DNA from: Alphaproteobacteria bacterium
GTDB taxonomy: Bacteria > Pseudomonadota > Alphaproteobacteria > JACZXZ01
Direction of reading: 5' to 3'
Assembly: GCA_052143835.1 (NCBI GenBank)
Contig: JBKQRV010000142.1
Location: 8,995-72,994, forward strand
DNA: 64,000 nucleotides
The first letter of the stretch is position 1; the number at the start of each line of letters is the position of its first letter. Below, in pieces: positions 2,647 to 35,487 of the stretch. A program made the position numbers and the translations under genes. The notes under the pieces are model-generated. The model was given only the letters and a program-made list of their open reading frames with translations. It was not told the DNA's origin and searched no databases.

Positions 2647-2648
2647 CG

Positions 2649-5785: not shown

Positions 5786-5973
5786 TTCATTCCCTCCCAC
5801 GCACCCTTCGCGAGCCCCCTCGCCGCCCCGGCCCGCGCGCGGCCCTGCCAATCTAGCAGAGCCGCTCGAACGATGTCGATTTGGCGATCACGTTTCCGCC
5901 GGGGCGCGGGCATCGCAGAAGCCCGGCCGATCGATTAGAATGGGCGGAAACGCGCGCAAACGAGGTTCGCATC

Positions 5974-7464: not shown

Positions 7465-7467
7465 GTC

Positions 7468-7635: not shown

Positions 7636-7670
7636 ATACTTACCAGCGACGATGGCGCGGGGAGAAAGGC

Positions 7671-8558: not shown

Positions 8559-8600
8559 CGCCCTGCCTCGCCCTGCCGCACCCGGAATGATATCAAACGA

Positions 8601-8628
8601 TTGACATTGTCGATCGATCGATATAAAT
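8601..8628 (+). promoter_or_regulatory. sigma70-like promoter (TTGACA ... TATAAAT) with embedded 12-bp palindrome TCGATCGATCGA (candidate TetR operator)
   Basis: TTGACA at 8601-8606, TATAAAT at 8622-8628, perfect palindrome at 8610-8621. The TetR gene start (8669, AGGAA RBS) lies about 40 bp downstream. Confidence 0.55.
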
Positions 8629-8668
8629 GACCTTCTCGCGCCGACCCCGGCGCACGAGGAAAAGGCGC

Positions 8669-10881: not shown

Positions 10882-10898
10882 CGAACGAGACGGATGCG

Positions 10899-12029: not shown

Positions 12030-12044
12030 CAGGCAGCCCTCGCG

Positions 12045-15000: not shown

Positions 15001-15131
15001 CCGGCCTTTCGATCGGGACGATCTTCACCCTCTTCGTGGTTCCCGCCGTCTATATGATGATCGCGGCCGATCACGCGAAGGCGAGAGAAGCCGCAGACGA
15101 GCCCGTGAGCACGGCGCCGCGCGAGGCGTGA
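12045..15131 (+). CDS. RND multidrug efflux transporter permease (AcrB/MdtB/MexB family)
   Basis: 1028 aa, starting MKFTDIFIRRPVLATVVSLLILVLG, with the 12-TM two-large-loop RND architecture. Confidence 0.9.
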   Translation: MKFTDIFIRRPVLATVVSLLILVLGLRAGGALPILQYPRTENAVVTVSTTYYGADPDVIAGFITTPLENAIAQANGIDYMTSTSQSSVSTITVYLRLNYDPDKALTEIQTKVTSVLNQLPPGSQQPVLTVSIGQTIDAMYMGFNSDVLAANQITDYLVRVVQPKLQAVPGVQTAEILGGQNFALRAWLDPAKLAAYGLTAADVSTALAQNDYISGLGNTKGQMVQVNLSASTSLHSAEEFANLVLKQANGAIVRLKDVANVTLGADDYESQVGFDGEKAVYIGIQVAPAANLLDVIAGVRKIFPGIQAQLPEGLKGTIVYDSTAFVNSAIREVERTLVEALVIVTLVIFAFLGSLRSVFIPTVAIPLSLIGTLAMMLVFGFSINLLTLLALVLAIGLVVDDAIIVVENVNRHLDEGMKPIPAAIAAARELGGPIVAMTVVLVAVYVPIGFQGGLTGALFTEFAFTLVGAVTVSAVVALTLSPMMCSRLLKPHGADRRGRQEQVVDFIDRRFEAVRRGYERWLRGSLNFLPVTGVFALIVLGSIYLLYSGAKSELAPQEDEGVIITQSTPAPNATLAQKLLYSRQVYELFAKYPETAHVFQLSTPSRNIDGMVFTPWDKRTRTTNQLQPILQQQLNGIAGVRVVAFQLPPLPGSQGLPIQFVIDTTDSFARLNDVSERFLAEAIKSGMFLFLDTDLKLDDPQSTVVIDRDKTAQLGLRMSDVGSAMAWMLGGGYVNYFSLDQRSYKVIPQVQQRYRLNTGQLLDYYVGSVGGIPIPLSSVARITTETVPESLNHFQQLNGATIQGVAAPGVAQEDALNYLKGLAERTLPQGYSIDYGGVSRQYVQESSGFVVTFAFALIIIFLSLAALFESFRDPLIILVSVPMSIAGALIFISVGLGGATLNIYTQVGLVTLMGLISKHGILIVEFANEQQRQGKSKRAAIESAAGIRLRPILMTTAAMVLGVVPLLIAGGAGAVSRFDMGLVIFAGLSIGTIFTLFVVPAVYMMIAADHAKAREAADEPVSTAPREA

Positions 15132-19207: not shown

Positions 19208-19657
19208 ATGGTTCATCTCGACATCAACGGCCATGCGCAGGACGTCGAGGTCGATCCCTCGACGCCGCTCCTCTGGGTGCTGCGCGATACGCTCGGCTTG
19301 ACCGGCACCAAGTACGGCTGCGGCATTGCCGAGTGCGGCGCCTGCACCGTCCATATCGACGGCAAGGCAGTGCGCTCCTGCGCGATGCCGGCGAGTGCCG
19401 CCCAAGGCAAGAAGATCGTGACCATCGAGGGCCTGTCGGCCGACGGCAGCCATCCCGTGCAAGTGGCTTGGCGCGAGCTCGACGTGCCGCAGTGCGGCTA
19501 TTGCCAGGTCGGCATGATCATGGCGGCCGCGGCCCTGCTGAGGCTAAAGCCCAAGCCGACGGACGCCGAGATCGACGAAGCCATCACCAACATCTGCCGC
19601 TGCGGCACCTACACGCGCGCCCGCAAGGCGATCCACCTGGCCGCGGCCAAGGTGTAA
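19208..19657 (+). CDS. iorA: (2Fe-2S)-binding small subunit of molybdenum hydroxylase (isoquinoline 1-oxidoreductase alpha / aldehyde dehydrogenase small subunit)
   Basis: Two [2Fe-2S] motifs (CGIAECGAC and CGYCQ ... CRCGTY); 149 aa. Confidence 0.85.
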
Positions 19658-19669
19658 CGGGAGGGTGCG

Positions 19670-21835
19670 GTGAGCATGCGTGAAACGAAGGGCATCGGCC
19701 GGCGCTCCTTCCTGGTGAGCACGGCCGCCGCCGGCGGGCTCATGCTCGGCTTCCGCCTACCCGGCCTCGCACAGGCACTCGCGGCCTCCGAGACGAGAGC
19801 CGCCGGCGAGGTGAATGCTTGGCTCCTCATCGCTCCCGACGACAGCGTCACCATCCGCGTGGCGCGCTCGGAGATGGGACAAGGCAGCTTCACCGCCCTT
19901 CCCATGCTCGTCGCCGAGGAGCTCGAGTGCGATTGGTCGAAGGTCAGGGCCGAATATGCCTCGGCGAGCGAGAATCTCGCGCGCAACCGCGTCTTCGGCT
20001 CGATGACGACCGACGGCAGCCGCGCGATCCGCGACTCCCAGGAATATCTGCGCAAGGCGGGGGCCGCCGCGCGCGCGATGCTGCTCGAGGCCGCGGCCGA
20101 GAAATGGGGCGTGCCGCGCGCCGAGCTCACGGTCGAGAAGGGCGTCATCATGCACGGCGTCTCTGGCCGCCGGATGCGCTACGGCGAGATTGCCGAAGCC
20201 GCCGCCAAGATGGCGCCGCCCCGGGAGGTGAAGCTGAAGGAGCCCGGCGAGTGGACGCTCATCGGCAAGCCGCAGAGGCGCCTCGATGTCGCCGACAAGG
20301 TCTTGGGCAAGCCGGTCTTCGGCATGGACGTCCGCCTTCCCGGAATGCTTTACGCGACGATCGCGCAATGCCCGGTCTTCGGCGGCAAGCTCAAGAGCTA
20401 CGACGACAGCAAGATAAAGAGCATGAGCGGCGTGCGGCAGGTGGTGGCCCTGGCGGGCGCGGTCGCCGTCGTCGCCGACAGCTACTGGCAGGCCAAGCAG
20501 GCGCTCGATGCGCTCCCGATCGCGTGGGACGAGGGCGCCAACGCCAAGGCGAGCGACGCCGGAATCAGGGCATACCTCGAGGACGGCTTGCGTGCTGGCT
20601 ACGCCGTCGCCGCGCGTCGCGAAGGCGATGTCGAGGCAGCGCTCGCCGGCGCCGCCAAGGTGCTCGAAGCCGAGTATTTTGCCCCCTTCCTCAGCCACGC
20701 GACGATGGAGCCGATGAACGCCACGGCGCGCGTCGGCGCCGACAAGGTCGAGGTCTGGGCGCCCTCCCAGAACGCCGAGGCCTCGCTCGCCGCGGCGGCC
20801 GAGGCAGCCGGGGTCGATCCGCGCAAGGTCGAGGTTCACCTCACCATGCTGGGCGGCGGCTTCGGACGGCGGGTCGCCGCCCAGGATTACGTCAAGCAGG
20901 CCGTCGTCATCTCGAAAGCCGCGGGCCGGCCGGTGAAACTGGTGTGGTCGCGCGAGGAGGACACGAGACACGACTTCTATCGCCCGGTGAGCATGGCGAA
21001 GTTCACCGCGGCACTCGACAAGGACGGCATGCCGATCGCGTGGCGGAATCGGGTCACGGGCCAATCGATCCTCGCCTTCATGAAGCCGAGCAGGGTCAGG
21101 CACGCCTACGACGAGGAATTCCTCGAGGGGCTCGTGGACCTCCCTTACGGCATACCCAACATTCTCGTCGACTATGCGATGCGCAACACGCACGTGCCGG
21201 TCGGCTACTGGCGCTCGGTCAACCATTCGCAGAACGCCTTCTACGAGGAAAGCTTCCTCGACGAGGTGGCCCATGCGGGCGGCAAGGACCCCTACGAGCT
21301 GCGGCGCATCCTGCTCAAGGACAAGCCGAAACAGCGCGCCGTGCTCGAGGCCGCGGCCAGGAAGGTCGAGTGGGAGAAGCCGCCGCCAAGCGGCGTCCAC
21401 CGCGGCATCGCCTATCACGACGCCCGCGGCAGCCTCACCTGCCAGATCGCCGAGGTCTCCGTCGGTGCCAAGGGCGAGATCACGGTGCGCCGCATCGTTT
21501 GCGCCATCGATCCCGGCCATGTCGTCAACCCGGACACGGTCGAGGCGCAGATCGAAAGCGGCATCGTCTACGGGCTTTCCGCAGCACTTTACGGCGAGAT
21601 CACGATCAAGGACGGCCGCGTCGAGCAGTCGAATTTCGACAATTACCAGGTGCTGCGCATGAAGGAGATGCCGAAGATAGAGGTCGTGCAGGTGCCGAGC
21701 GGCGGATTCTGGGGCGGGATCGGCGAGGTAGGCGTGCCCGGCGCGGCCCCGGCGCTCTGCAACGCCATCTTTGCCGCGACGGGAAAGCGCATCCGCTCCT
21801 TGCCGCTCAAGAACCACGACCTGCGCTCGGCATGA
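19670..21835 (+). CDS. iorB: molybdopterin-binding large subunit of molybdenum hydroxylase (IorB-like), Tat-exported
   Basis: Tat motif GRRSFLV; aldehyde oxidase/xanthine dehydrogenase MoCo-binding domains; 721 aa. Confidence 0.85.
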   Translation: MSMRETKGIGRRSFLVSTAAAGGLMLGFRLPGLAQALAASETRAAGEVNAWLLIAPDDSVTIRVARSEMGQGSFTALPMLVAEELECDWSKVRAEYASASENLARNRVFGSMTTDGSRAIRDSQEYLRKAGAAARAMLLEAAAEKWGVPRAELTVEKGVIMHGVSGRRMRYGEIAEAAAKMAPPREVKLKEPGEWTLIGKPQRRLDVADKVLGKPVFGMDVRLPGMLYATIAQCPVFGGKLKSYDDSKIKSMSGVRQVVALAGAVAVVADSYWQAKQALDALPIAWDEGANAKASDAGIRAYLEDGLRAGYAVAARREGDVEAALAGAAKVLEAEYFAPFLSHATMEPMNATARVGADKVEVWAPSQNAEASLAAAAEAAGVDPRKVEVHLTMLGGGFGRRVAAQDYVKQAVVISKAAGRPVKLVWSREEDTRHDFYRPVSMAKFTAALDKDGMPIAWRNRVTGQSILAFMKPSRVRHAYDEEFLEGLVDLPYGIPNILVDYAMRNTHVPVGYWRSVNHSQNAFYEESFLDEVAHAGGKDPYELRRILLKDKPKQRAVLEAAARKVEWEKPPPSGVHRGIAYHDARGSLTCQIAEVSVGAKGEITVRRIVCAIDPGHVVNPDTVEAQIESGIVYGLSAALYGEITIKDGRVEQSNFDNYQVLRMKEMPKIEVVQVPSGGFWGGIGEVGVPGAAPALCNAIFAATGKRIRSLPLKNHDLRSA

Positions 21836-21884: not shown

Positions 21885-23702
21885 TCAGGGCCTCGCGCTT
21901 GGCTCTTTCGTCGCCCTGCGGATGGCGTAGAGCGAGACGTTGCCGTAGCCCTTGGCGAGCGGCACGCTGCCGACGTAATCGCGCGCGTAGGGCGCGTTCG
22001 TCTCGAGCGCCAGCGCCGCGGCAAAGGGCTCGGTGACGTAGACCGAGCCGACCGGGGTGATCGGCTCGATGCGCGCCGCGCGGGTGACGTGGGCGCCGAA
22101 GAAGGAGGTGCGATCGAGCACCGGGTCGGTCATCTCGTTGACCGGCCCGTAGTGGCAGCCGATGCGCAGCGCCGTGTTCGCCGGCAAAGCGCTCCGCGCC
22201 AAATCGACGCGCGCCACGCGCTCCTGGATGGCAAGCGCGCAGGCGGTCGCCGCCTCGACATCGTCGAAGACGATGAAGAGCCCGTCGCCCCAGGTATTGC
22301 ACCACAGCACGTGCTCGCGAAAGCCGCGGATCGCACCCCCCATCGCACCCAGTATCTCTTGCACGAAGGCCGGGATTTGCCGCTCCGTGAGCTTGCTGAA
22401 GCCGCGCACGTCGCCGAAGAGAAAGGCGCAGAGCCGCCGCCCCTCGCCCGCGAGCGGCCCGCTCGGCCCCTCCGGCACCTCCGTGCAAGGCCGCCCAGTG
22501 CCGTCGGGTGCAATGATCAAGGTGGGATGCCCGGCCATGCGCCAGATGCGCACTTCCGCCCCCGTGCCGGCCAAGCCGTGCGAATGGTCGGGCGGCGTGC
22601 CGTCCCATAAGGCGATCTGCATTGCCTTGCCGTCGAGGAAGTCGGCGCGCTGCAAGGCCAGCCCCATGGCGTAGCGGCCGCCATAGGAGAAGAGCGCGCT
22701 CGAGCCGGCGAAATCGTCGCTCGTCGCCACGACCACGCGGCTCGCGCGCGCGAGGCAGGCCTCGAAACGCTCGAGCCAGCGCTGCCCCGCGGGCGCCACC
22801 GAGACCGCGCGGAACTCGTTGAGCTCGAAAGGGATGACGAGATGAAGCTCGGCCCCGCGCGCGAGCAGCGCCTCGGCGAAGATCACGTCGGCCCCCGCCG
22901 CGAGCGAGCCGTAGCCGTAACCGACGTCTCGTTCCGCGAGCGCCTCGCTGATCGCGCGGGCCGCGGCCGGCTCGTCGCTCTCCTTGAAGTGCCGCCCGAT
23001 GAGATGGCCGACGTAATGGATGACGGGTGCGGGTGCGAGCGGTGCGAGGATGCCCTCGTCGAGACCGAGCTGGCGGCAGGTCCGGCGCAGCTGGCGCCGC
23101 GTCGCCGCGCGCGCCTGCGTATCGACCGGGCGCACATCGGCGGCGCGGCCGATGAGCGCGCGCGCGGCAGCGACATTGCCGAGAATCAATTGCGCTTCGG
23201 CCTGCGTGGCCAGGCCGTAATAGTCGTCGGCCTTGCAGACCGCGAGCACCGCCTCCGCCGTGCGGCGCGCTTCGGCGTCGCGGCCGGCCCAGAGCAGGAG
23301 GGCCGCGGCATTGACGCCGGGATAGGGGTCGCGGGTCAGCGTGAAGACCTGGGCGTAGGCGGCGGCGGCGGCCTCCAACCGCTCGTTGCGCCGGCTCGAG
23401 GAGTCGGCGAGCGCCACATCCTTGAGCAGGCGCGCCTGGAGCGAGGGAAGGTCGACCGCAAGTTTGGCGTCGTCCGTTGCCGCCTCGCCCAGCGCCCACT
23501 TGCCGTAGAGGTCGAGCGCGCGCGCGGTGGCGCCGGCACGCGCCATGGCGAGGAGCGCACGATGCTTGTAGGCGAGAGCATCCGGGAATTCCTCGACGGC
23601 GCGATGGGCGAGATCGCAGGCGACGATCAGGTCGCCCCGCCGCATCGCCGCGTCGATCTCGGCGAGGCGTGCCGCCCCCTCTTCACCCCCTTGCGCCGTC
23701 AT
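21885..23702 (-). CDS. multidomain signalling protein: N-terminal TPR-like helical domain, SLOG (DprA/Smf-like Rossmannoid) domain, C-terminal class III adenylate/guanylate (nucleotidyl) cyclase domain
   Basis: Cyclase motifs: FGDVRGFS and WGDGLFIVF (metal-binding Asp), GCHYGPV and FGAHVTRAARIE. SLOG motif GYGYGSLAAGADVIFAEALLARGAELHLVIP resembles DprA GxARGID...GG.TIAVL. Start at MTAQGG with an AGAGG RBS. Confidence 0.75.
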   Translation of the reverse strand: MTAQGGEEGAARLAEIDAAMRRGDLIVACDLAHRAVEEFPDALAYKHRALLAMARAGATARALDLYGKWALGEAATDDAKLAVDLPSLQARLLKDVALADSSSRRNERLEAAAAAYAQVFTLTRDPYPGVNAAALLLWAGRDAEARRTAEAVLAVCKADDYYGLATQAEAQLILGNVAAARALIGRAADVRPVDTQARAATRRQLRRTCRQLGLDEGILAPLAPAPVIHYVGHLIGRHFKESDEPAAARAISEALAERDVGYGYGSLAAGADVIFAEALLARGAELHLVIPFELNEFRAVSVAPAGQRWLERFEACLARASRVVVATSDDFAGSSALFSYGGRYAMGLALQRADFLDGKAMQIALWDGTPPDHSHGLAGTGAEVRIWRMAGHPTLIIAPDGTGRPCTEVPEGPSGPLAGEGRRLCAFLFGDVRGFSKLTERQIPAFVQEILGAMGGAIRGFREHVLWCNTWGDGLFIVFDDVEAATACALAIQERVARVDLARSALPANTALRIGCHYGPVNEMTDPVLDRTSFFGAHVTRAARIEPITPVGSVYVTEPFAAALALETNAPYARDYVGSVPLAKGYGNVSLYAIRRATKEPSARP

Positions 23703-23976
23703 GCTCCCTCTGACGTTGTCCGCCCTTCCGCAGGAAGGCGGCATTTCCTCGCGGCAGAGCACGCCACCCGCCGCGAGAGAGCATAGCCGACCCCTCGCCC
23801 TCGGCGAAAGCCGCTAATTGGCCCGGGCGGCCTGCCATCGCGATTCAGCGCTTGTCCTTTGCCGTGTTACACTTTCGGCCGTCGCGGAGAGGCGCGTTGC
23901 AGAGGGGTCGGCCGCAGCGCCCCGAGGCTGGATGCTCTCTTGGAAGTCATCCGCCCGGGCAAGAGGAACCAACCGA

Positions 23977-26900
23977 ATGGCAGAACCGCTCAGGATCTTC
24001 ATCTCCTCGCCCGGCGACGTCGAGGAGGAGCGTCGGCGCGCGGCAATCGTCGTGGGCAGGCTCGCCCGCGAATTCGCGCGCTTCTTCGAGATCAAGCCGG
24101 TGCTTTGGGAATACGAGCCCATGCTCGCATCGGGCCACTTCCAGGACATCATCGAGCCGCCTTCGCGCTCCGACATCGAGGTGGTGATTCTGTGGTCGCG
24201 CCTCGGCACGCCGCTGCCGGCCGAGCGTTACCGCGGGATCGATGGACGGGCACCCGTCACCGGCACGGAATGGGAGTTCGAGGACGCGCTCAAGGCCCAC
24301 CGCGAGCGAGGTGCTCCGGACCTCCTGGTCTACCGCAAGAAGACCAAGGGAATCGCCGAGTTCGACAGCACGGAAGAGCTCGAGGCGGCGGCACTTCAGC
24401 GCAAGGCGCTCGAGCAGTTCTGGGAGCGCTACTTCGGCAGCGCTCAGAGCGGCTTCAAGGCGGCGTTCAACCTCTTCACCGACCGCGACGAGTTCGAGCA
24501 AATGCTCGAGTCGCACCTGAGGACGCTCATCCGCGAGCGCCTGCCGCGGCTCGCGGAGTCGCGCCGAGCCTCCGCCGAGATCGCCTGGCACCAAGGCTCG
24601 CCCTATCGCGGGCTCCAGTACTTCGATCTCGAGCACGCGCCGATCTTCTTCGGCCGCGCGCGCGCGCAACGCCAAGTGACCGAGGCGCTGGCGCGCCGCG
24701 CGGCAGAGGGCTCTGCCTTCGTGCTCGTCTTGGGCATGAGCGGCTGCGGCAAGTCCTCGCTCGTGCGCGCCGGCGTGCTGCCCGAGCTGATGACGCCGGG
24801 CGTGGTGAGCGGCGTCGGGATGTGGCGGCACTGCGTGTTCCGGCCGAGCGAAGGCGAGGGCGACCTGATCGGCGGGCTGATCCGGGCGCTGTCGGAGCGG
24901 GAGCAGGCTCTGCCCGAGCTCTTGGAGGGCGGCCTCAGCGTCGAGCAGGTGAGCGCTCTTGTGCGCGACGTGCCGCATCAGGCGACCGTGACGATCGCAC
25001 CGAGCCTCAAGCGCGCGGCCGAGCGCGTCAAGGGTATCGCCGGCGAGGGCCGCCTCATCCTCGTCATCGACCAATTGGAGGAGATGTTCTCGCTCCCCTC
25101 GGTCGACAAGGAGGCGCGCGAGCGCTTCGTGACGCTCATCGCAGCCCTTGCGGAGAGCCGGGTCGTGTGGGTGATCGGCGTGATGCGCAGCGACTTCTAC
25201 CACCGCGCCGCCGAGTTGCCGGTCCTCGTGCGGCTTGCGGCCGGCCGGGGAAGCTACCTGCTCACCGAGCCGACCGCGCCGGAGATCGCGGAGATGATCA
25301 ATCAACCGGCCGCCGCCGCCGGGCTCGCCTTCGAGGTGGACGCGGAAAGCGGCGAGCGGCTTGACCGGGTGCTGCAGGAAGCGGCGGCCCGCGAGCCGGG
25401 CGCCTTGCCGCTTCTCGAGTTCGCGCTCGACCAGCTCTATCGCAAGGACATCGAGGAGAAGCACGGCGAGGTCCTGACCTTCGCGAGCTACCGCGATCTC
25501 GGCGAGCTAAGGGGTGCGGTGGCGCGCCACGCGGACGAGGTGTGCGACGCCTTGCCGGCGGACGCGCGAGCGGCGCTTCCGAGCGTATTGCGCGCGCTGG
25601 TCACCGTGGGGTCGGGGGAGGACCGCGCCACCGCGCGCGCGGTGCGTCGCGACGAGATCGGCGCCAATGCGGCGCGGGCCGCCGTCATCGACCGCTTGAT
25701 CGAGGCGCGCCTGCTCGTGAGCAGCGAAGAGGAGGGTGCCGGACAGGTTCGTCTCGCGCACGACATGCTCATCGCAAGCTGGCCGCGCCTCAGGGATCTC
25801 GTGGCCGAGGATCGCGACTTCCTGCGCACGCGCGAGCGGGTCGACCAGGCGGCGGTGGAATGGGAGCGGCGCGGCCGGGCCGACGATTTCCTTTTGCCGG
25901 GCGGCCGCTCGCTCGCCGAGGCGGAGGACCTGCTCGCGCGGCGCAGCGAGGATATCGAGAGCCGCGACCGCCTCTTCATCGAGACCTCGGTTCGGCGCGA
26001 GCGCGCGCAGCGGGAGCGGCGGCTGAAACAAACGCGCGCGGTCGCCGCCGTGATGGGGCTGCTCGCCGTGGTCGCCGCCGGCTTCGGCTGGTACGCCTAC
26101 GACCGCCGCGCCGCGGCGGAGCGCAATTACGAGATCGCCGTGCGCGCGGCTCAAACGCTCGTTCGCGACGTGGCGGACCGCCTGCGCAACCTCGGCCTGC
26201 CCGCAGCCAGCGTGCGCGACATCCTGACGAGCGCCGAATCGCTTTACAAAGACCTCACTCTCGACGCCGCCTCGCGGCCCGACCTTCTCGGCCGGAAGGC
26301 GGAGACGCTGATGTCGCTCGCCGACACCTACGCGGCACTCGGGGATACCGGTGCCGAGCGCAAGCGGGCCGAAGAGGCGCGCGCGGCCTTCCTCGATCTC
26401 ATCGCAAAGCACCCGAACGATACGACCTGGCAGCGCGACCTTTCCGTCAGCCAAAACAAGGTCGGAGACGCGCTTCGCGCCCAAGGTGATCTGGCCGGCG
26501 CGCTTGAGAGCTATCGCGCCGGCCTGGATACCACGGAGAAGCTCGCGGCGCGCGATGCTTCCAACGCCGTCTGGCAGCGCGATCTCGCCATCAGCCACGA
26601 GCGCATCGGCGACACGCTCACCGCGGAAGGAGACCTCGGCGGCGCGCTCGCCAGCTATCGCAAGGGCCTCGCGATCCACGAGGCGCTGGCGAAACGCAAT
26701 CCCTCCGATAGCGAGGGGCAGCGCGACCTTTCAGTCAGCGACAACAAGATCGGCGACGCGCTCCGCAATGGCGGAGAGCCGGCGGAGGCGCTCAAGAGCT
26801 ACCGCGCCGGCTTGGCGATCATGGAAGCGCTCACGGCGAAGGATCCCTCGAACACGCAGTGGCTGCGCGACCTCGCCATCAGCCACGAGCGGATCGGCAA

Positions 26901-28233
26901 TGTACTCCGCATCCAGGGCGACGAGACGGAGGCGCTTGCGAGCTACCGCAAGAGCCTCGCGATTCACGAGCAACTTGCGGCGCGCGACTTGTCCAACACG
27001 GTGTGGCAGCTCGACGTCTCCATCGGCAACGAGAGGATCGGCGACATGCTCGCCAGCCAGGGCAATCTCGCGGAGGCGCTCAAGAGCTACCGCACGTCCC
27101 TCGGGACGCGAGAGAGGCTGGTGGCGCGCGATCCCTCCAATTCCGACTGGCAGCGCGATCTCTCGGTTGGCGAAAACAAGGTGGGGGACGTGCTCCGCGT
27201 CCAGGGCGATGCGAAGGGCGCGCTTGCCAGCTATCGCACGGGCCTCGACATCATGGAGAAGCTCGTGGCGCGGGATCCCTCGAATGCCGGCTGGCAGCGG
27301 GATGTCTCAATCAGCTACGAGCGGATCGGCGATGCGCTGGCCGCCCAGGGAAACCAAGGAGAGGCGCTGGCGAGCTATCGCAAGAGCCTCGATATTCGCG
27401 AGAAGCTTGCCGCGCGCGACCCATCCAACATCGGCTGGACCTACGACCTGTCCATCAGCAATACCAAGATCGGCGACGCGCTCCGCGCACAAGGGGACCA
27501 GGACGGAGCGCTTGCGAGCTATCGCACGGAGCTCGCGATCGTCGAGAAGCTGGCGGCGCGCGACCCCACGAACGCGGAGTGGCAGCGCGACGTCTCCGTC
27601 GGGCAAAACCGCATCGGCGACGTGCTCCGCGCGAAGAACGACTTGGGGGGAGCGCTCGCGAGCTATCGTACCGGTCTTGCGGTCATGGAGAAGCTCTCGG
27701 CGCGCGATCGTGCGAACGCGCTTTGGCAGCACGATCTCTGCGTCAGCTACGAGCGCATCGGCGACGTGCTGGCGCTTCAACGGGATCCCGCGGGGGCGCT
27801 CGCATACTATCGGCAGGAGCTCGAGCTCATCGGCAAGCTTGCGGCGGCCAATCCCTCGAACCTCTCCTGGCAGCGCGAGCTCTACCTCACGCAAAACCGC
27901 GTCGGCAACGCGCTTGCCGCAACGGGTGATCAGGCGGGAGCGCTCGCGAGCTTTCGCGCCGGCCTTGAGACCATTTCGCCGCTGGCATCGCGCGATCCAT
28001 CCAACACCGGCGAGCAGCACGATCTCGCCGTCAGCCACGAGCGGATCGCGAGCGCGCTGAGCGCGCTCGGGAACCAGGCCGAGGCGCTTGCAAGCTACAA
28101 TAGGAGCCTCGAAATCATCGAGACGCTCCTCGCGAAGCAGCCGTCGAATACACTCTGGCAGCATGATCGCTCCTATTTGCGCGGCGAAATCGGGACTCTC
28201 GCAAAAAATTCGCCAAGCGGTTCCGCCCAATGA
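23977..28233 (+). CDS. STAND-type P-loop NTPase with N-terminal DUF4062/TIR-like domain, single TM helix and C-terminal array of about 13-14 TPR_10/12-type (42-aa) repeats
   Basis: N-terminal IFISSPGDVEEER plus a conserved acidic TEWEFEDAL. Walker A is VLVLGMSGCGKSSLV and Walker B is LILVIDQLEE. TM helix is AVAAVMGLLAVVAAGFGWYAY. The C-terminal repeats have WQRDL anchors. An AGGA RBS precedes the ATG at 23977; the ORF's upstream extension to 23818 is rejected. Confidence 0.75.
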   Translation: MAEPLRIFISSPGDVEEERRRAAIVVGRLAREFARFFEIKPVLWEYEPMLASGHFQDIIEPPSRSDIEVVILWSRLGTPLPAERYRGIDGRAPVTGTEWEFEDALKAHRERGAPDLLVYRKKTKGIAEFDSTEELEAAALQRKALEQFWERYFGSAQSGFKAAFNLFTDRDEFEQMLESHLRTLIRERLPRLAESRRASAEIAWHQGSPYRGLQYFDLEHAPIFFGRARAQRQVTEALARRAAEGSAFVLVLGMSGCGKSSLVRAGVLPELMTPGVVSGVGMWRHCVFRPSEGEGDLIGGLIRALSEREQALPELLEGGLSVEQVSALVRDVPHQATVTIAPSLKRAAERVKGIAGEGRLILVIDQLEEMFSLPSVDKEARERFVTLIAALAESRVVWVIGVMRSDFYHRAAELPVLVRLAAGRGSYLLTEPTAPEIAEMINQPAAAAGLAFEVDAESGERLDRVLQEAAAREPGALPLLEFALDQLYRKDIEEKHGEVLTFASYRDLGELRGAVARHADEVCDALPADARAALPSVLRALVTVGSGEDRATARAVRRDEIGANAARAAVIDRLIEARLLVSSEEEGAGQVRLAHDMLIASWPRLRDLVAEDRDFLRTRERVDQAAVEWERRGRADDFLLPGGRSLAEAEDLLARRSEDIESRDRLFIETSVRRERAQRERRLKQTRAVAAVMGLLAVVAAGFGWYAYDRRAAAERNYEIAVRAAQTLVRDVADRLRNLGLPAASVRDILTSAESLYKDLTLDAASRPDLLGRKAETLMSLADTYAALGDTGAERKRAEEARAAFLDLIAKHPNDTTWQRDLSVSQNKVGDALRAQGDLAGALESYRAGLDTTEKLAARDASNAVWQRDLAISHERIGDTLTAEGDLGGALASYRKGLAIHEALAKRNPSDSEGQRDLSVSDNKIGDALRNGGEPAEALKSYRAGLAIMEALTAKDPSNTQWLRDLAISHERIGNVLRIQGDETEALASYRKSLAIHEQLAARDLSNTVWQLDVSIGNERIGDMLASQGNLAEALKSYRTSLGTRERLVARDPSNSDWQRDLSVGENKVGDVLRVQGDAKGALASYRTGLDIMEKLVARDPSNAGWQRDVSISYERIGDALAAQGNQGEALASYRKSLDIREKLAARDPSNIGWTYDLSISNTKIGDALRAQGDQDGALASYRTELAIVEKLAARDPTNAEWQRDVSVGQNRIGDVLRAKNDLGGALASYRTGLAVMEKLSARDRANALWQHDLCVSYERIGDVLALQRDPAGALAYYRQELELIGKLAAANPSNLSWQRELYLTQNRVGNALAATGDQAGALASFRAGLETISPLASRDPSNTGEQHDLAVSHERIASALSALGNQAEALASYNRSLEIIETLLAKQPSNTLWQHDRSYLRGEIGTLAKNSPSGSAQ

Positions 28234-28916: not shown

Positions 28917-29597
28917 ATGATGAACTATCCCCCGGTGCCCGAGGCGAGCGAGGTCGCGCGTCACTTCAGCGAGGCCGTGCGCCGCTCGCGGCCCGCCGAC
29001 TGGCCCTACCGCCATTGGAAACTCAGCGACGTTTTGCCGGAGAGCATGTGCACCGGCATCCTTACCCTCCCGATCGTCCCCCCGATGCTCGGGAAAACCG
29101 ATGGCACGCGCAATACCTACAACAGCCGGCGCACCTTCATAACCCCATCGCTGCGCGCCAAATTCCCGACGTGCGCGGTGCTCGCGGACGCGCTGCAACG
29201 GCCGGACGTGGCACGGCTGATGGCCGAGACCTGCCACATCGAGGCCGCCGGCAGCTATCTGAGGATGGAATACATTCAGGATACCGACGGCGCTTGGCTC
29301 GAGCCGCATCGCGACATTCCCGAAAAGCTGTTCTCGATGGTGATCTATCTCTGTACCGGGCCGGAGGCGAAGGACTGGGGTACGGATATCTATGATAGCG
29401 AACGCCGCTGGGTCGGGCGCTCCTCGGCCGAGTTCGACTCCGGTGTGATTTTCGTTCCCGGCCCCGCGACCTGGCACGGCTTCGATCCGCGGCCCATCAT
29501 CGGCGTGCGGCGCCTGATGGAGATCAATTATGTCCGGCCGGACTGGCGTGACCGCGAACAGCTGTCAATCCCGGATCGGCCGATCGTGCTCGCCTAG
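28917..29597 (+). CDS. putative 2OG-Fe(II) oxygenase superfamily protein
   Basis: Has an HxD (LEPHRDIPE) and a distal His (ATWHGF) in a double-stranded beta-helix-like context. The family assignment is tentative. Confidence 0.45.
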   Translation: MMNYPPVPEASEVARHFSEAVRRSRPADWPYRHWKLSDVLPESMCTGILTLPIVPPMLGKTDGTRNTYNSRRTFITPSLRAKFPTCAVLADALQRPDVARLMAETCHIEAAGSYLRMEYIQDTDGAWLEPHRDIPEKLFSMVIYLCTGPEAKDWGTDIYDSERRWVGRSSAEFDSGVIFVPGPATWHGFDPRPIIGVRRLMEINYVRPDWRDREQLSIPDRPIVLA

Positions 29598-29668
29598 CGA
29601 CTTCCGTTAAGGCTGCCTCCTCCGATATCCCCTCGATACTCCCTTGACTCGTTCCTTTCCCTTGGTTA

Positions 29669-29698
29669 GAACAAATAAGGAACGAACAAATCGCGAAC
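29669..29698 (+). promoter_or_regulatory. tandem alphaproteobacterial LexA SOS boxes (GAAC-N7-GAAC x2) upstream of imuA
   Basis: GAACaaataagGAAC at 29669-29683 is immediately followed by GAACaaatcgcGAAC at 29684-29698, about 20 bp upstream of the imuA ATG at 29717. Confidence 0.75.
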
Positions 29699-29716
29699 GA
29701 TTTCTGGGAGAATTCC

Positions 29717-30493
29717 ATGAGCTATCGCCACGATCTCGTCTCGGTCGAGGCGCTCAAGAGCCGCATCCTGGCGCTCGAGGGCGCCTGGCAGGGTGTCGGC
29801 CGGCACGAGGAAGCACGGCCCGCAGCCCCGCTTGGGCTCGAGCCGTTGGACCGTGCCTTGCCCTGGGGCGGTCTGCCCACGGCCTGTCTCCACGAGGTCT
29901 CGGCAGGAGCCGCGGCCGATGGTGCCGTTGCCGGCTTCGCTGCCTATCTCCTCGCCCGCTTGAGCGCCGCGGCGGGAAGGCGGCAGTCCGCCGTGCTTTG
30001 GTGTGCCGCGGGCGAGGGGCTTTACGGGCCGGGTCTTGCCGCCTACGGGCTGGATACGCACCGGCTCATCCTCGTGCGCGGACGGCGCCAGGCCGACCTT
30101 CTGTGGGCGCTCGAAGAAGCCTTGCGCTCGGGTGCCCTCGCCGCCGTGCTGGGCGAGATCGAGGAGGCGGACTTGACTGCCACGCGCCGGCTCCAGCTTG
30201 CCGCCGAGGCCGGGCGCACGACGGCCCTCCTGCTCCGTCCTCTGGGCGGCAAGCCCGCCCCCTCGGCCGCCGTCACCGCTTGGCGCATTGCCGCCGCCCC
30301 CTCGGGAGCGGCCCCCTGGGGCGCCGGACTCGGCCGTGAGCGCTGGCGCCTCGAGCTCGTGCGTTGCCGCGGAGGGTTGCCGCGTCAATGGCTTGTGGAG
30401 TGGAACGATGAGGCGAATCGTCTCGCTGTCGCTGCCGAGTTTCGCGACCGATCGGTTGACGCGCCTACCGGCGCTCGCCGCCTGGCGGGCTAA
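29717..30493 (+). CDS. imuA: translesion DNA synthesis-associated protein ImuA (SulA/RecA-like)
   Basis: 258 aa, first gene of the imuA-imuB-dnaE2 cassette, LexA boxes upstream, with a RecA-fold-like core. Confidence 0.8.
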   Translation: MSYRHDLVSVEALKSRILALEGAWQGVGRHEEARPAAPLGLEPLDRALPWGGLPTACLHEVSAGAAADGAVAGFAAYLLARLSAAAGRRQSAVLWCAAGEGLYGPGLAAYGLDTHRLILVRGRRQADLLWALEEALRSGALAAVLGEIEEADLTATRRLQLAAEAGRTTALLLRPLGGKPAPSAAVTAWRIAAAPSGAAPWGAGLGRERWRLELVRCRGGLPRQWLVEWNDEANRLAVAAEFRDRSVDAPTGARRLAG

Positions 30494-31949
30494 GCCCTTC
30501 GCGACCACCGCGAAAGCGGGCGGCCGGCTCGTCATCGTCGCCGCCAATGCGCCGGCCGAGGCCGCCGGCATTGCTCCCGGCCAAGTGCTGGCGGACGCGC
30601 GCGCGCTTGAGCCGGGCTTGCGTGTCGTCGCCGCCGACCCCTCTGCCGACGGCTCTGCCCTTGCAGCCCTTGCCGACGGGTTGACGCGCTACACCCCTTG
30701 GGTGGCCGTCGACGAGCAGGGGGAAGGTGGCGCGCGCGGCGCGCTTCTCGACATCACCGGCTGCGCCCATCTCTTCGGCGGCGAGGCGGCCCTCTTGGCC
30801 GACCTCATAGGCCGGCTCGAGCGCTGCGGCTTCGCCGCGCGTGCGGCAATCGCAGCGAGTGCGGGGGCCGCCTGGGCGGTCGCCCGCTTCGCTCCTCACG
30901 ATCGCCTCATCATCGCGCCCGGCGCCGAGGGCGAAGCGCTCGCGGCTCTCCCCGTTGCCGCCTTGAGGCTGCCGGCCGAGACGGCGGGCAGGCTCGAGCG
31001 CCTCGGGCTGCGCCGCATCGGCGCCCTCTATACGCTGCCGCGGGCACCCCTCGCACGCCGCTTCGGGAGCCTCGTCGGCCGCCGTCTCGACCAAGCGCTC
31101 GGCCGCGTGCAGGAGCCGATCTCGCCGCGCCGGCCGGTCGAGCCCTGGCGCCTCCAGCTCGCCTTTGCCGAGCCGATCGCGCAACGCGAGGATATCGCGG
31201 CCGCCACTGAGCATCTCACGGCCGCGCTCTGCCGCCGCTTGGCCGAGGAGATGAAGGGCGCGCGCCGGCTCGTCCTCGCACTTTACCGGGTCGACGGCAC
31301 CCTCGCGCGCGTCGAGATCGGCACCAGCCGCCCGGTGCGCGAGACCAAGCATCTCATGCGTCTCTTCGCCGAGAAGCTCGACGGCCTCGACGTCGGGCTC
31401 GGCCTCGACCTCGTGGCGCTTTCCGCCCCCGTGGTCGAGCCGCTCGCGGCGTCCCAGAGCGGCCTGCTCGCTGGCGCGAGCGAGGCAGCGCTGCCCGCGC
31501 TCGCTGCCCTTGTCGACCGCCTCGCCAACCGCCTCGGCGCGAGCGAGGTACGCCGGCTGGTCCCCGTCGCGAGCCACCTTCCCGAGCGCGCCCAGCGCGC
31601 GGCCCCGGCACTGGCCTCGGCGGGTGCCGCGGAAGCTCCTTGGCGTAAGCGCCGGCCGCGTCCCTTGCGCCTCTTCACGCGACCCCAGCCGGTCGATGCG
31701 ATCGCCCCCGTGCCCGATGATCCCCCCCTCCTCTTCCGCTGGCGCGCGCAGCTCCACCGCATCCGCCGCGCCGACGGGCCCGAGCGCATCGCCGGCGAGT
31801 GGTGGCAGGGCAACACCCCCGCCCAAGCCGAGGTGCGCGACTATTATAGGGTCGAGGACGAGGCGGGCAGGCGCTTCTGGCTCTATCGCGAGGGCCTCTA
31901 CCACCCCGAGCGCCGCCCGCGCTGGTTCCTCCACGGGCTGTTCGCGTGA
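30408..31949 (+). CDS. imuB: Y-family DNA polymerase-like protein ImuB
   Basis: 513 aa starting MRRIVSLSLPSFATDRL (UmuC-like N-terminus). It overlaps the imuA 3' end in another frame and lies upstream of dnaE2. Confidence 0.8.
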   Translation: MRRIVSLSLPSFATDRLTRLPALAAWRAKPFATTAKAGGRLVIVAANAPAEAAGIAPGQVLADARALEPGLRVVAADPSADGSALAALADGLTRYTPWVAVDEQGEGGARGALLDITGCAHLFGGEAALLADLIGRLERCGFAARAAIAASAGAAWAVARFAPHDRLIIAPGAEGEALAALPVAALRLPAETAGRLERLGLRRIGALYTLPRAPLARRFGSLVGRRLDQALGRVQEPISPRRPVEPWRLQLAFAEPIAQREDIAAATEHLTAALCRRLAEEMKGARRLVLALYRVDGTLARVEIGTSRPVRETKHLMRLFAEKLDGLDVGLGLDLVALSAPVVEPLAASQSGLLAGASEAALPALAALVDRLANRLGASEVRRLVPVASHLPERAQRAAPALASAGAAEAPWRKRRPRPLRLFTRPQPVDAIAPVPDDPPLLFRWRAQLHRIRRADGPERIAGEWWQGNTPAQAEVRDYYRVEDEAGRRFWLYREGLYHPERRPRWFLHGLFA

Positions 31950-31974
31950 GGTGACCGCGCCGTCAAAGTGTTTT

Positions 31975-32177
31975 CACCACGGAGACACGGAGGACACGGA
32001 GGACACGGAGAAGAAGAAAGCAAGATCTAACGCAGAGGTCGCGAAGGATGCGACGCCAGAGGCGTCGCATCAGTGGACGCAGAGGAATAATTTTTCTCCG
32101 CGTCCTCTGCGCATCCTCCGCGTCCTCTGCGCTGAACAATGCCTTCTCTTCTCCGTGTCTTCCGTGTCTCCGTGGTG
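31975..32177. repeat. self-complementary intergenic repeat element (copy 2) between imuB and dnaE2
   Basis: Near-perfect terminal inverted repeats: CACCACGGAGACACGGAGGACACGGAG (31975-32010) and CTCCGTGTCTTCCGTGTCTCCGTGGTG (32151-32177). Internal features are CGCAGAGG/CCTCTGCG inverted pairs and a 17-mer direct repeat CTCCGCGTCCTCTGCGC x2. Confidence 0.7.
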
Positions 32178-32202
32178 CATCTGTCGTGCACTGGGATTAC
32201 CC

Positions 32203-35487
<3,285 letters not shown>

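Follow-up and report, generated by a model that had tools for sequence, protein, structure and literature searches.

A predicted membrane-spanning STAND NTPase with a TIR-fold head, encoded beside a SLOG-cyclase gene

Does a hydrophobic helix lying between the NTPase and the repeat array of a STAND protein place the two halves of that protein on opposite faces of the membrane, and if so, to what would such a protein signal? The question was raised by an open reading frame of 1418 codons in a 64,000-nucleotide stretch of alphaproteobacterial DNA (the window; GC content 68%), for which an initial annotation had proposed a head, an NTPase, a helix and a repeat tail.

Gene and domain order

The 1418-residue reading frame described in that annotation is real. 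It runs as a single frame from an ATG at 23977 to a stop codon ending at 28233, a Shine-Dalgarno-like AAGAGGA lies upstream of it, and its GC3 of 0.85 is typical of real genes. The N-termini of homologues begin at the same M-x-x-P-L-R-I-F-I-S-S-P that the ATG opens; thus, the ATG is the true start, and an upstream TTG at 23818 was rejected. All four proposed modules were found in the proposed order. In full, the DUF4062-like head of TIR fold comes first, the nSTAND1 P-loop NTPase and a poly-basic linker follow, and the conserved hydrophobic helix then leads toward the variable repeat tail (Table 1). The family is very large and widespread, and its distribution across phyla is patchy.

Table 1. 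Features of the STAND gene and of its divergent neighbor (window coordinates)
Feature	Residues	Nucleotides	Strand	Basis
STAND gene	1-1418	23977..28233	+	ORF and translation; GC3; Pfam; >2043 homologues covering the first 760 aa
Head, divergent DUF4062 (NIR)-like, TIR/NDT-superfamily fold	1-205	23977..24591	+	
nSTAND1 NTPase module	209-636	24601..25884	+	PF20703 E 8.7e-96; AAA_16 7.8e-10; motif positions
Juxtamembrane helical linker with poly-basic end RRERAQRERRLKQTR	637-687	25885..26037	+	charge counts; conserved motif
Single TM helix AVAAVMGLLAVVAAGFGWYAY, N-in/C-out (predicted)	688-708	26038..26100	+	hydropathy; conservation; positive-inside bias
Post-membrane helical stalk, Ala-, Arg- and Glu-rich	709-769	26101..26283	+	sequence; L005 comparison
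Repeat sensor tail (predicted periplasmic)	770-1418	26284..28230	+	periodicity; TRF; Pfam TPR matches; divergence
Intergenic region, 274 bp, between the divergent STAND and partner genes		23703..23976	.	
Partner gene, TPR-S + SLOG + cyclase	605 aa from Met at 23702	21885..23702	-	divergent neighbor
Partner TPR-S domain		about 23295-23621	-	
Partner YpsA-like SLOG domain (middle)		about 22500-23039	-	
Partner class III nucleotide cyclase domain		about 21921-22430	-	

In the head, residues F8, S10, S11, P12, D14, E18, R19, W44, E45, E47, W73, R75, G96, T97, E98, W99, E100 and E102 are invariant. The run G96-T97-E98-W99-E100-x-E102 falls where DUF4062 NADases place their catalytic Glu and, right after it, an aromatic side chain (KpSwz E97, Vulcan E98, VstA E103, PsAvs2 E108, Eva01 E87-Y88; 10.64898/2026.05.01.722283, 10.64898/2026.09.04.749371, 10.64898/2026.06.25.731849). 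The earlier suggestion of a DUF4062/TIR-like head with a conserved acidic motif is supported, with E98, E100 and E102 all invariant, and the head is predicted to be an NAD+-cleaving effector or signal generator. Against the DUF4062 assignment, the head scores below the Pfam threshold for DUF4062. In PADLOC the head gave only a weak match to PDC-S60, and no Avs or Thoeris model matched the protein.

The match to PF20703 (nSTAND1) is full-length (HMM positions 1-378 of 379) and is accompanied by a match to AAA_16. The Walker A (GMSGCGKS, residues 253-260, nt 24733-24756, including K259) and Walker B (LILVIDQLEE, residues 360-369, nt 25054-25083) motifs read from the translation both lie inside it. 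The linker that follows carries a motif kept in homologues, LLPGG..LAEAE, and its poly-basic stretch is predicted to mark the cytoplasmic face.

Membrane topology and the repeat tail

The helix is the most hydrophobic 19-residue window of the protein (Kyte-Doolittle [KD] 1.92; Wimley-White -3.07) and has 8 K/R in the 15 residues before it and 4 in the 15 after, in line with the strongly hydrophobic, N-terminally basic helix first described. In three sets of homologues it is kept in 112/116, 56/58 and 100/103 proteins; in the last set, of diverse representatives, its distance from Walker A is fixed (median 437 aa downstream), and the remaining three proteins retain in this position an uncharged segment that is weaker. 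Its sequence varies freely among homologues while hydrophobicity is maintained. The segment free of charged residues is on average 22.7 residues long (range 19-30), which is too short for a hairpin and favors a single span; the re-entrant anchor offered as an alternative in the initial annotation was rejected on this basis. On average, 6.2 K+R precede the helix and 2.6 follow it, and the N-terminal count is the higher one in 108/112 homologues; this bias argues that the head and NTPase face the cytoplasm and the repeats lie outside.

Sampling of four nSTAND1 proteins that carry other heads (wHTH, HTH, trypsin and canonical TIR) showed the same helix in each. The wHTH- and HTH-headed proteins support the topology, since DNA-binding heads must be cytoplasmic. 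The helix had been considered atypical; instead, it is standard in this head family and common in the nSTAND1 clade, not an oddity of this protein. That it separates the two halves across the membrane is supported by its fixed position, the charge bias, the span length and the envelope-type tails described below. We predict that the head and NTPase are in the cytoplasm and the TPR array is in the periplasm. Against a membrane span, the helix of this protein is only moderately hydrophobic.

The tail was said to hold about 13-14 TPR_10/12-type repeats of 42 residues. The repeat type stood (Pfam TPR_12 1.7e-27, TPR_10 8.6e-22); the length did not. The period is exactly 48 aa (144 bp), with 12 units in perfect register (residues 818-1393, nt 26428-28155), preceded by one degenerate unit (770-817) and followed by a partial one (1394-1418). 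Self-identity at a shift of 48 residues is 0.51, and at 96 it is 0.55; TRF finds the 144-bp periodicity too, at 10.3 copies. The unit consensus is WQRDLSVSxERIGDALRAQGDxAGALASYRxGLxIxEKLAARDPSNxx. Homologues carry TPR, WD40, BamB/PQQ-like propeller or RHS+PDZ modules at this place. The tail is also the fastest-diverging part of the protein (65% identity to L005, a close relative, compared with 85% for the head and 75% for residues 709-817, the stalk and degenerate first repeat). Both the swapping of tail modules and the rapid divergence of the tail point to a sensor role, and the envelope-type RHS+PDZ and BamB/PQQ-like modules support an outside location. Canonical G-beta-type WD40 domains are usually cytosolic and are unusual in periplasmic proteins, so the WD40 tails argue against a periplasmic tail.

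The partner gene and a possible relay

The intergenic region shared with the divergent partner gene presumably contains the promoters of both; it lacks a sigma-70 consensus, and none is expected in such GC-rich DNA. In Thoeris types I and VIII, SLOG domains and TPR-S-type TPRs are known, or have been proposed, to receive the ADPR-derived signals that TIR enzymes make (10.64898/2025.12.03.692087). The partner's cyclase domain is without the canonical substrate-specifying Lys/Asp and the transition-state Asn, which makes its product, and even its activity, uncertain. Of 72 homologue loci, 19 have a SLOG-containing partner no more than 6 kb away, directly adjacent in 14, a count inflated by the wider general synteny that the closest relatives (L002-L005) share. 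Adjacent SLOG partners are divergent, co-directional or convergent, with the cyclase present or absent, and adjacency holds at 43-49% partner identity. Elsewhere, each of six sampled members of the same cyclase family lies within 6 kb of a TIR gene, directly adjacent in five, with spacing from a 4-bp overlap to 10 bp. The six TIR proteins share the layout TIR-polybasic-TM-outside domain and contain no NTPase. This tight pairing is hard to explain unless the TIR-type enzyme is linked to the partner.

From these sequence features we propose, at about an even chance, that the protein is a single-pass inner-membrane NLR/STAND-type receptor whose TIR-like head signals to the SLOG-cyclase in a Thoeris-like manner. 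The cue bound by the periplasmic array would be extracytoplasmic, for example a component of a phage or another invader, or a ligand derived from the envelope. With the membrane between them, the sensor could not dock back onto the NTPase, so activation would proceed through ligand-driven clustering or a conformational change passed along the TM helix and stalk, leading to NTP-dependent oligomerization of nSTAND1. Once gathered by oligomerization, the heads would begin to cleave NAD+, in the manner of DUF4062/NIR NADases and TIR domains. In this lineage, ADP-ribose or a derivative may then be read by the partner's SLOG and/or TPR-S, and its cyclase domain would make a cyclic nucleotide output. 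The whole would be a Thoeris-like producer-receiver relay with its trigger outside the cell; in the majority of homologues, which have no adjacent partner, the head is probably a direct NAD+-depleting effector. If true, this would be an undescribed outside-to-inside alarm pathway with a receptor often paired with a signal-sensing cyclase gene.

Several observations count against parts of this proposal. Roughly a fifth to a quarter of homologue loci, and no more, have the partner nearby, which weighs against a relay, and reports describe the characterized DUF4062 enzymes as simple NADases that yield ADPR rather than dedicated messengers, which weighs against a messenger role. Also, the locus is not a defense island: PADLOC found nothing in the partner or in seven other neighboring ORFs, and the flanks are housekeeping genes (mtnA and an imuB/dnaE2 cassette), which speaks against a defense role.

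Three other explanations were considered. The protein could be a stand-alone, membrane-tethered Avs-like abortive-infection sensor whose head simply depletes NAD+ upon oligomerization of the NTPase, with an independent partner that is nearby through synteny or island clustering. This is possible but unlikely. It fits the about 53 of 72 loci without a SLOG partner within 6 kb (for example, L001), the synteny among the four closest loci, and the NAD+ depletion by characterized DUF4062 proteins, including the single-gene PsAvs2 (DUF4062-STAND-TPR). However, adjacency survives partner divergence and three gene orientations, SLOG is kept while the cyclase comes and goes, and the same cyclase family is found reproducibly beside TIR-TM proteins. 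We consider it quite unlikely that the protein is instead a non-immune receptor that picks up a cue from the envelope or the environment with its periplasmic TPR array and, through the NTPase switch, turns it into a cyclic-nucleotide and/or NAD-derived messenger regulating physiology: although the gene is kept in relatives at 85-98% identity in a stable, housekeeping-like chromosomal setting, the PADLOC defense-island signal is absent, sister nSTAND1-TM proteins with wHTH/HTH heads resemble ToxR/CadC-style membrane-bound regulators, and cNMP-binding regulators lie near partner homologues in two loci (L092 and L093), the characterized relatives of every module (DUF4062/NIR, TIR, nSTAND1, SLOG/TPR-S receivers) are all linked to immunity or conflict, and tail swapping, rapid sensor divergence and patchy phylum distribution are typical of conflict systems.

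The third explanation, that the hydrophobic segment is a buried or oligomerization helix or a peripheral anchor in a cytosolic, classical STAND protein auto-inhibited by its repeats, appears very improbable. The segment here is Ala/Gly-rich and near the bottom of the family's hydrophobicity range, KD falls under 1.6 in a few homologues, the WD40 tails noted above would suit the cytosol, and two Chlorohelix proteins that combine the same head and nSTAND1 with an FGE tail lack the helix, so the core can function in its absence. But the family medians are about KD 2.2-2.9, and free sequence variation with kept hydrophobicity indicates a lipid-facing span rather than a packed helix. The uncharged length, the invariably poly-basic N-flank and the aromatic/basic C-flank are the signature of a span, and the same element occurs in the TIR-TM-sensor proteins that lack an NTPase.

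Comparison with known systems

The receptor proposed here resembles the nSTAND1 clade (PF20703; Kaur, Iyer, Burroughs & Aravind 2021, eLife, PMC8195603) in its full-length family match, intact Walker A/B motifs and layout of an N-terminal effector with C-terminal superstructure-forming repeats. The accessible part of that description does not mention a TM helix between NTPase and repeats, which is near-universal for the head family here. PsAvs2, a DUF4062-STAND-TPR protein shown experimentally to sense phage and deplete NAD+, and other DUF4062 (NIR)-STAND-TPR antiviral sensors share the head-NTPase-TPR logic and an acidic residue at the equivalent place (10.64898/2026.09.04.749371). However, PsAvs2 is described as sensing a phage terminase co-expressed inside the cell, whereas the tail here is predicted to be outside, and the word transmembrane is never used in the PsAvs2 paper, whereas this protein has a predicted span (10.64898/2026.09.04.749371). 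The protein here further differs in its nSTAND1 NTPase, its lack of a match to PADLOC Avs models, its sub-threshold head and its recurrent SLOG-cyclase partner.

Thoeris pairs a TIR producer with a ligand-activated effector (type I ThsA, SIR2-SLOG; type VIII ThsI, with TPR-S-type TPR), and the present locus is alike in that a TIR-superfamily enzyme gene adjoins a gene with SLOG and TPR-S; the Thoeris survey deliberately left out TIR-bearing Avs proteins (10.64898/2025.12.03.692087). In place of the small cytosolic TIR protein of Thoeris, the producer at this locus would be a STAND protein of 1418 aa with a predicted membrane span and a DUF4062-like head, and the receiver output is a class III-type cyclase rather than SIR2, a pore or a hydrolase. 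PADLOC Thoeris models were also unmatched.

KAP family P-loop NTPases are reportedly membrane-embedded and related to the STAND/conflict-system world. They offer a precedent for membrane-embedded NTPases; their TM helices are inserted inside the P-loop domain, whereas here one helix follows an intact NTPase and precedes the sensor. Animal Toll-like receptors, bacterial one-component membrane receptors such as PknB or ToxR/CadC combine an outside repeat or sensor part, a single TM helix and an inside signaling domain, which in Toll-like receptors is of TIR type. The N-terminus of Toll-like receptors is outside, whereas the N-terminus here is predicted to be inside, so that the orientation is reversed, and an NLR-type NTPase switch sits between the TIR-like domain and the membrane. 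Without implying homology of the sensors, one polypeptide here joins features that animals keep in separate receptor classes.

Architecture of the STAND protein and its predicted membrane helix

The product of the STAND gene carries the tripartite plan of NLR-like STAND proteins in one polypeptide: a head (residues 1-205), an nSTAND1 NTPase (209-636) and a repeat tail (770-1418). ATG 23977 is taken as the true start of the 1418-codon ORF, rather than an upstream TTG, because homologues begin at the same M-x-x-P-L-R-I-F-I-S-S-P. An AAGAGGA motif lies upstream of this ATG, and the GC3 of the ORF (0.85) is in line with other real genes of the window, in which GC is ~65-74%. The NTPase matches PF20703 (nSTAND1) over positions 1-378 of the 379 in the Pfam model, with 322.3 bits (E 8.7e-96) against a curated cut-off of 27.1 bits. 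Walker A (GMSGCGKS, 253-260; GxxGxGKS/T) and the acidic motif of Walker B (LILVIDQLEE, 360-369) are intact. The protein is a bona fide nSTAND1 member, in agreement with the initial annotation, which had recognized a STAND-type NTPase from these two motifs. None of the Avs models in PADLOC matched it; PADLOC returned a weak match of the head to PDC-S60 (E 5e-6) and marginal mad8, AbiEii and mad3 matches. NCBIfam had no informative model for this protein or for the product of the divergent neighbouring gene (the partner), and an exact-sequence look-up of the STAND protein found no record. More than 2,043 proteins were recovered as homologues of residues 1-760; among the matches listed, the majority are ~1,200 aa long and cover 95-100% of this query. 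Homologues range from 869 to 1,834 aa.

The head is the best-conserved part, with 50-68% identity in homologues that share ~45-54% over residues 1-760. The AlphaFold2 model of the head is a Rossmann-like α/β domain (pLDDT 85.5, pTM 0.82) with a TIR/NDT-like Rossmannoid fold. DUF4062 (PF13271) was the top match in 26 of 27 aligned family heads (best E 1.5e-5), always below threshold. The STAND protein scores 14.3 bits as a whole and 18.3 bits as the head alone against a gathering threshold of 24.7 bits, and no aligned family head (n = 27) qualifies for formal Pfam membership. A head profile compared with PDB sequences gave chance-level matches only. Thus, of the DUF4062/TIR-like head proposed initially, the TIR-like fold and the recurrent DUF4062 match stand, but the curated DUF4062 threshold is missed. 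Within the conserved acidic TEWEFEDAL motif that had been picked out in the same domain, T97-E98-W99-E100-x-E102 is invariant across the family alignment, as is F8; the T97-E102 stretch opens the helix after the third strand of the model. Three 2026 preprints (10.64898/2026.05.01.722283, 10.64898/2026.09.04.749371, 10.64898/2026.06.25.731849) describe DUF4062 domains as TIR-like NADases with a catalytic Glu at 87-108, which in Evangelion is followed by Tyr, and also report an N-terminal aromatic motif. Compared by sequence position with the published residues (E87-Y88/F11, E97, E98, E103 and E108), F8 and the T97-E102 stretch lie about where a catalytic Glu and the aromatic motif would be expected, and are candidates for these roles. 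We treat the head as a divergent DUF4062/NIR-type domain of TIR fold, below the Pfam threshold, that is predicted from sequence and model to cleave nucleotides.

Between the NTPase and the tail lies AVAAVMGLLAVVAAGFGWYAY (688-708), which scores highest for hydrophobicity among all 19-residue windows in the protein (Kyte-Doolittle hydropathy, KD, 1.92; Wimley-White -3.07). Its 15-residue flanks contain 8 K/R on the N-terminal side and 4 on the C-terminal side. The hydrophobic helix with a basic N-flank described in the initial annotation is therefore real as a sequence feature, and its position is conserved: 112 of 116 homologues (matches of at least 800 aa) have a window of KD ≥1.6 at ~680-720, and three of the remaining four keep an uncharged segment of ~20 residues at the same site. 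While the helix sequence varies among homologues, a poly-basic run (e.g. RRxLxRSRR) always precedes it, and K+R averages 6.2 in the N-flank vs 2.6 in the C-flank (N>C in 108 of 112), a positive-inside asymmetry. The helix is present in 56 of 58 complete ORFs from species-representative genomes. Among the listed best matches of the head profile, 103 representatives had head and P-loop and were long enough to judge, and in 100 of these the distance from Walker A to the helix is fixed, with a median of 437 aa. This pattern predicts a true membrane segment that crosses once and leaves the N-terminus in the cytoplasm. Because of the conserved TM helix and the positive-inside bias, the sensor repeats and the NTPase are predicted to lie on opposite sides of the membrane and not to share a compartment. 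The family with such a predicted sensor is large, since the head profile matched 7,848 representatives of 50%-identity clusters, at least 1,789 of them at E ≤1e-30; its phyla include Proteobacteria, Abditibacteriota, Armatimonadota, Eremiobacterota and Acidobacteriota. Two other topologies were rejected: (i) a re-entrant hairpin, which is unlikely because the uncharged stretch (mean 22.7 residues, range 19-30 in homologues) is too short, and (ii) an N-out/C-in arrangement, which conflicts with the charge bias and would cut off the NTPase and the NADase from the cytoplasmic ATP and NAD+ that they need.

The helix had been regarded as an oddity among STAND proteins. This view has to be given up, as the helix is common in the nSTAND1 clade. 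A plasmid tblastn search gave nSTAND1 proteins with other heads, and in all four inspected (see table) a poly-basic stretch and then a TM helix follow directly after the NTPase. The DNA-binding wHTH and HTH heads among them must be cytoplasmic, which provides independent support for the N-in orientation. The membrane span may thus be a general, under-appreciated trait of the clade. It is also optional, since tandem paralogues on a Candidatus Chlorohelix allophototropha plasmid, with a DUF4062-like head, nSTAND1 and an FGE/SUMF1 (C-type-lectin-like) tail, both lack it. Their plan resembles the nSTAND1-FGE targets of diversity-generating retroelements (PMC10907252), and the retroelement paper predicted differing localisations for some NACHT targets. 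The accessible parts of the nSTAND1-defining paper (PMC8195603), of an earlier conflict-systems paper (PMC7159879), and of the 2026 Nature STAND survey and the DUF4062 papers describe no STAND with its sensor across the membrane.

The tail had been read as 42-residue repeats of TPR_10/12 type. The family assignment stands (TPR_12 95.8 bits, TPR_10 76.9 bits, other TPR families above their cut-offs), but the repeat length is 48 aa exactly (144 bp), which is neither the 34 aa of classical TPRs nor the 42 aa of TPR_10/12. Twelve units run in perfect register, preceded by one degenerate unit and followed by a partial one; TRF gave a 144-bp period with 10.3 copies. Shifted against itself, the tail has an identity of 0.51 for an offset of 48 and of 0.55 for one of 96. 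This two-unit (96-aa) super-period, with alternating 'SxNK/SxER' variants, suggests that the array grew by duplicating pairs of units. After the helix, homologues carry TPR arrays, canonical WD40 propellers (with a Sel1-like end, read from the sequences alone), a BamB/PQQ-like propeller (locus L042) or RHS plus PDZ. The last was seen in a Candidatus Brocadia MAG, in which RHS/YD repeats and a C-terminal PDZ follow the TM helix and neither TPR nor WD40 is present. BamB/PQQ-like propellers and RHS plus PDZ are typical envelope modules, and such tails therefore fit a C-out topology. Identity to the orthologue at L005 drops from 0.85 in the head through 0.79 in the NTPase and 0.75 in the post-TM region to 0.65 in the repeats, as expected of a ligand-binding end, and the tail is a swappable, fast-evolving module.

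The partner gene and its linkage to STAND and TIR genes

The start of the partner gene was set by homologues, and its 605-aa product consists of TPR-S (PF20308), a middle domain and a class III cyclase domain. The sole Pfam matches of the middle domain are weak and all to SLOG families (YAcAr in 7 of 15 members, DprA in 4, YpsA in 1); it also matches ShosA/DprA (~12), LOG (10.7), TRPM2 (9.9) and the 3'cADPR-bound ThsA SLOG (7.7). A profile of the SLOG alignment gave chance-level matches only against PDB sequences. The cyclase domain keeps both metal-binding Asp and the catalytic Arg, which are family-invariant (D431, D473 and R544, numbered on the first sequence of alignment A3). NTWGD replaces the K/E-x-x-GD specificity motif and HVTRAAR replaces VNxAAR, so that neither the Lys/Asp that canonically sets specificity nor the Asn of the transition state is retained. 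With these replacements, the product may be a non-canonical cyclic nucleotide, or the activity may be altered. A promoter scan of the intergenic region common to the two genes found nothing.

An HMM search found a SLOG-containing partner within 6 kb in 19 of 72 homologue loci, immediately adjacent in 14; these counts are minima, as short contigs are frequent. A cyclase-type partner lies directly upstream and divergent at L002, L004, L005, L031 and L054, directly upstream and co-directional at L021, L041 and L061, and adjacent but cut by the contig end at L003. In the WD40-tailed subfamily, a TPR-S-SLOG gene without cyclase is immediately downstream and convergent (L023, L025, L027, L028, L029). 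L046 has a SLOG-only ORF directly upstream, and five more loci have further SLOG ORFs within 6 kb. No partner was seen at L001, and the pairing is thus facultative; it occurs in a minority of loci, and the closest relatives share the synteny.

The cyclase family is also linked to canonical TIR genes. Among six members from unrelated genomes, a TIR gene is immediately adjacent in five (4-bp overlap to 10-bp gap) and 4.6 kb off in the sixth. All six TIR proteins are built alike: the TIR domain is N-terminal and is followed by a poly-basic stretch, then by a TM helix (KD 2.3-2.9) and a predicted outside domain of one of three kinds (small and Cys-containing, WD40, or PQQ propeller). From this single plan and the reciprocal linkage we infer a recurring unit of two proteins: one combines a TIR-type enzyme inside the cell, one TM helix and an outside sensor, and the other is a TPR-S-SLOG(-cyclase) protein of the cytosol. 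The window probably holds a variant of this unit with a DUF4062-like head and a STAND NTPase, and the TIR_2-TM proteins appear to be its simpler, Toll-like-receptor-style sister. The adjacency is Thoeris-like, a TIR-superfamily gene beside a SLOG/TPR-S gene fused to an output domain; no Thoeris gene model in PADLOC matched the STAND gene or the partner. Close to two partner-family genes (at L092 and L093) lie a Crp-like regulator and an ABC ATPase with a cNMP-binding domain, which are possible candidates for downstream readers of the cyclase output.

Features of the window and of loci from other genomes and plasmids
Sequence	Feature	Position	Strand	Remark
Window	AcrB-type RND efflux pump gene	12045-15131	+	upstream; ACR_tran E 1.6e-256
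Window	Fer2 and molybdopterin-oxidoreductase pair	19208-21835		between mtnA and partner gene
Window	Partner gene	21885-23702	-	divergent from STAND gene
Window	Cyclase domain of partner	21921-22430	-	
Window	STAND gene	23977-28233	+	stop codon included
Window	Twelve-unit repeat array	26428-28155	+	residues 818-1393
Window	Mutagenesis cassette	28917-35487	+	directly downstream of STAND gene
Window	226-aa ORF without family match		+	first in cassette, where imuA would be expected
Window	ImuB-like Y-family polymerase homologue	30198-31949	+	with DUF6504
Window	DnaE2, error-prone polymerase		+	in cassette; NF004225, 1480 bits
Window	tRNA-Arg(TCT)	61049-61124	-	near right end
Window	tRNA-Pro(TGG)	62066-62142	-	near right end
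L050	STAND homologue with RHS/YD and PDZ tail	10619-13222		Candidatus Brocadia MAG
L081	TIR_2 TM protein	5915-6991		beside TPR-S-SLOG-cyclase gene
L083	TIR_2 TM protein	5898-6995		beside TPR-S-SLOG-cyclase gene
L084	TIR_2 TM protein	5900-6991		beside TPR-S-SLOG-cyclase gene
L091	TIR_2 TM protein	7791-8909		beside TPR-S-SLOG-cyclase gene
L092	TIR_2 TM protein	7826-10606	-	beside TPR-S-SLOG-cyclase gene
L092	Crp-like regulator	4793-5473		
L093	TIR_2 TM protein	324-1364		near TPR-S-SLOG-cyclase gene
L093	ABC ATPase with cNMP-binding domain	1-334		
L086	nSTAND1, wHTH head	3655-7620		Mesorhizobium plasmid; helix KD 2.51
L088	nSTAND1, canonical TIR head	4030-8430		Caballeronia plasmid; helix KD 2.09
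L089	nSTAND1, trypsin head	4276-8616		Streptomyces plasmid; helix KD 2.14
L090	nSTAND1, HTH head	4279-8112		Streptomyces plasmid; helix KD 2.52
L087	nSTAND1-FGE tandem paralogues	1328-4222 and 4471-7314		Candidatus Chlorohelix allophototropha plasmid

Setting of the locus

The locus is flanked by mtnA, the molybdo-oxidoreductase pair and an imuB/dnaE2 mutagenesis cassette. The DnaE2 match begins at residue 232 of a long ORF, which places the real start near 32203. In L004 and L005, which are close relatives, the corresponding interval lacks the Fer2/molybdopterin pair; in the more distant L031 and L054 it is found near the cyclase-STAND pair, and the upstream stretch therefore looks variable. 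PADLOC found nothing in the partner or in seven other neighbour ORFs tested. A defence-island setting was dropped, as nothing nearby except the weak PDC-S60 match of the head was detected and the flanks are of housekeeping type. No integrase or other mobile-element signature was seen near the STAND gene in the window. A mobile-element origin is likewise unsupported, since phage genomes gave three weak nSTAND1 matches only and plasmids no match above 60% identity.

A possible relay and its relation to known systems

In Thoeris of type I, TIR makes a cADPR isomer that is bound by the ThsA SLOG domain; in type VIII, cADPR activates ThsI, whose TPR was predicted by Aravind's group to act in TIR signalling (10.64898/2025.12.03.692087). 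YpsA-like SLOG domains are the clade implicated in sensing such ligands (PMC9503650). By analogy, the periplasmic repeat array would bind a ligand, and the signal would pass the membrane either by clustering or because helix and stalk change their conformation. The nSTAND1 modules would then oligomerise and switch on the heads, which would cleave NAD+; the head product would act on the SLOG/TPR-S domains of the partner, and its cyclase domain would yield the output. Since the sensor is predicted to lie across the membrane, a model of auto-inhibition by fold-back could not apply, and clustering or transmembrane activation would be needed instead. Where a locus lacks a partner, the head itself would be the effector and simply deplete NAD+, like PsAvs2 (10.64898/2026.09.04.749371). 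This scheme builds on the observed architecture, conservation, charge bias, folds and gene linkage, from which topology, enzyme activity, relay and biological trigger are inferred.

We tentatively propose that these proteins are innate-immune receptors of bacteria that signal 'outside-in' through a two-tier cascade, a class that would be widespread and has not been described before. A periplasmic repeat sensor would act through one TM helix on an NLR-type NTPase and a TIR-like enzyme, and the NAD-derived product would be read by the SLOG/TPR-S-cyclase, giving an ADPR-type signal and then a cyclic nucleotide. The TIR-TM-sensor proteins with the same cyclase partner would be the TLR-like sister form, a bacterial counterpart of Toll-like receptor logic. 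The loci without a partner would suit a stand-alone, membrane-tethered Avs-like NADase. That account is rather doubtful beside the recurrent SLOG/TPR-S-cyclase partner, which is common to TIR-TM-sensor proteins and points to a relay from TIR product to cyclic nucleotide. A non-immune receptor that signals from the envelope to cNMP is considered unlikely. Finally, the helix of the STAND protein lies at the weak end of the hydrophobicity range of the family, as might be the case if the protein were cytosolic and the helix not a membrane span, a very improbable reading next to the family-wide conservation of helix position and charge bias.

If the 'outside-in' reading is true, invaders would be detectable at the envelope before cytoplasmic entry, and NLR-type switches may serve in envelope or periplasm surveillance. 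The relay, if true, would join two messenger systems that are normally studied apart. The modules of the STAND protein are known already. The accessible literature describes neither the predicted membrane-spanning arrangement nor the pairing with a SLOG-cyclase, and it presents the bacterial defences built on STAND/NLR-like or TIR proteins as cytosolic and as sensing phage components. The TPR-S-defining paper (Burroughs & Aravind 2020 J Bacteriol) may already cover some of the partner association.

Among known systems, the DUF4062-STAND-TPR sensors of Avs type would work in a similar way, but the STAND protein falls below the thresholds of the Avs and DUF4062 models. The STAND gene and its partner resemble Thoeris in logic, not in membership. 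In classical STANDs the sensor resides in the compartment of the NTPase, a rule that this protein is predicted to break.
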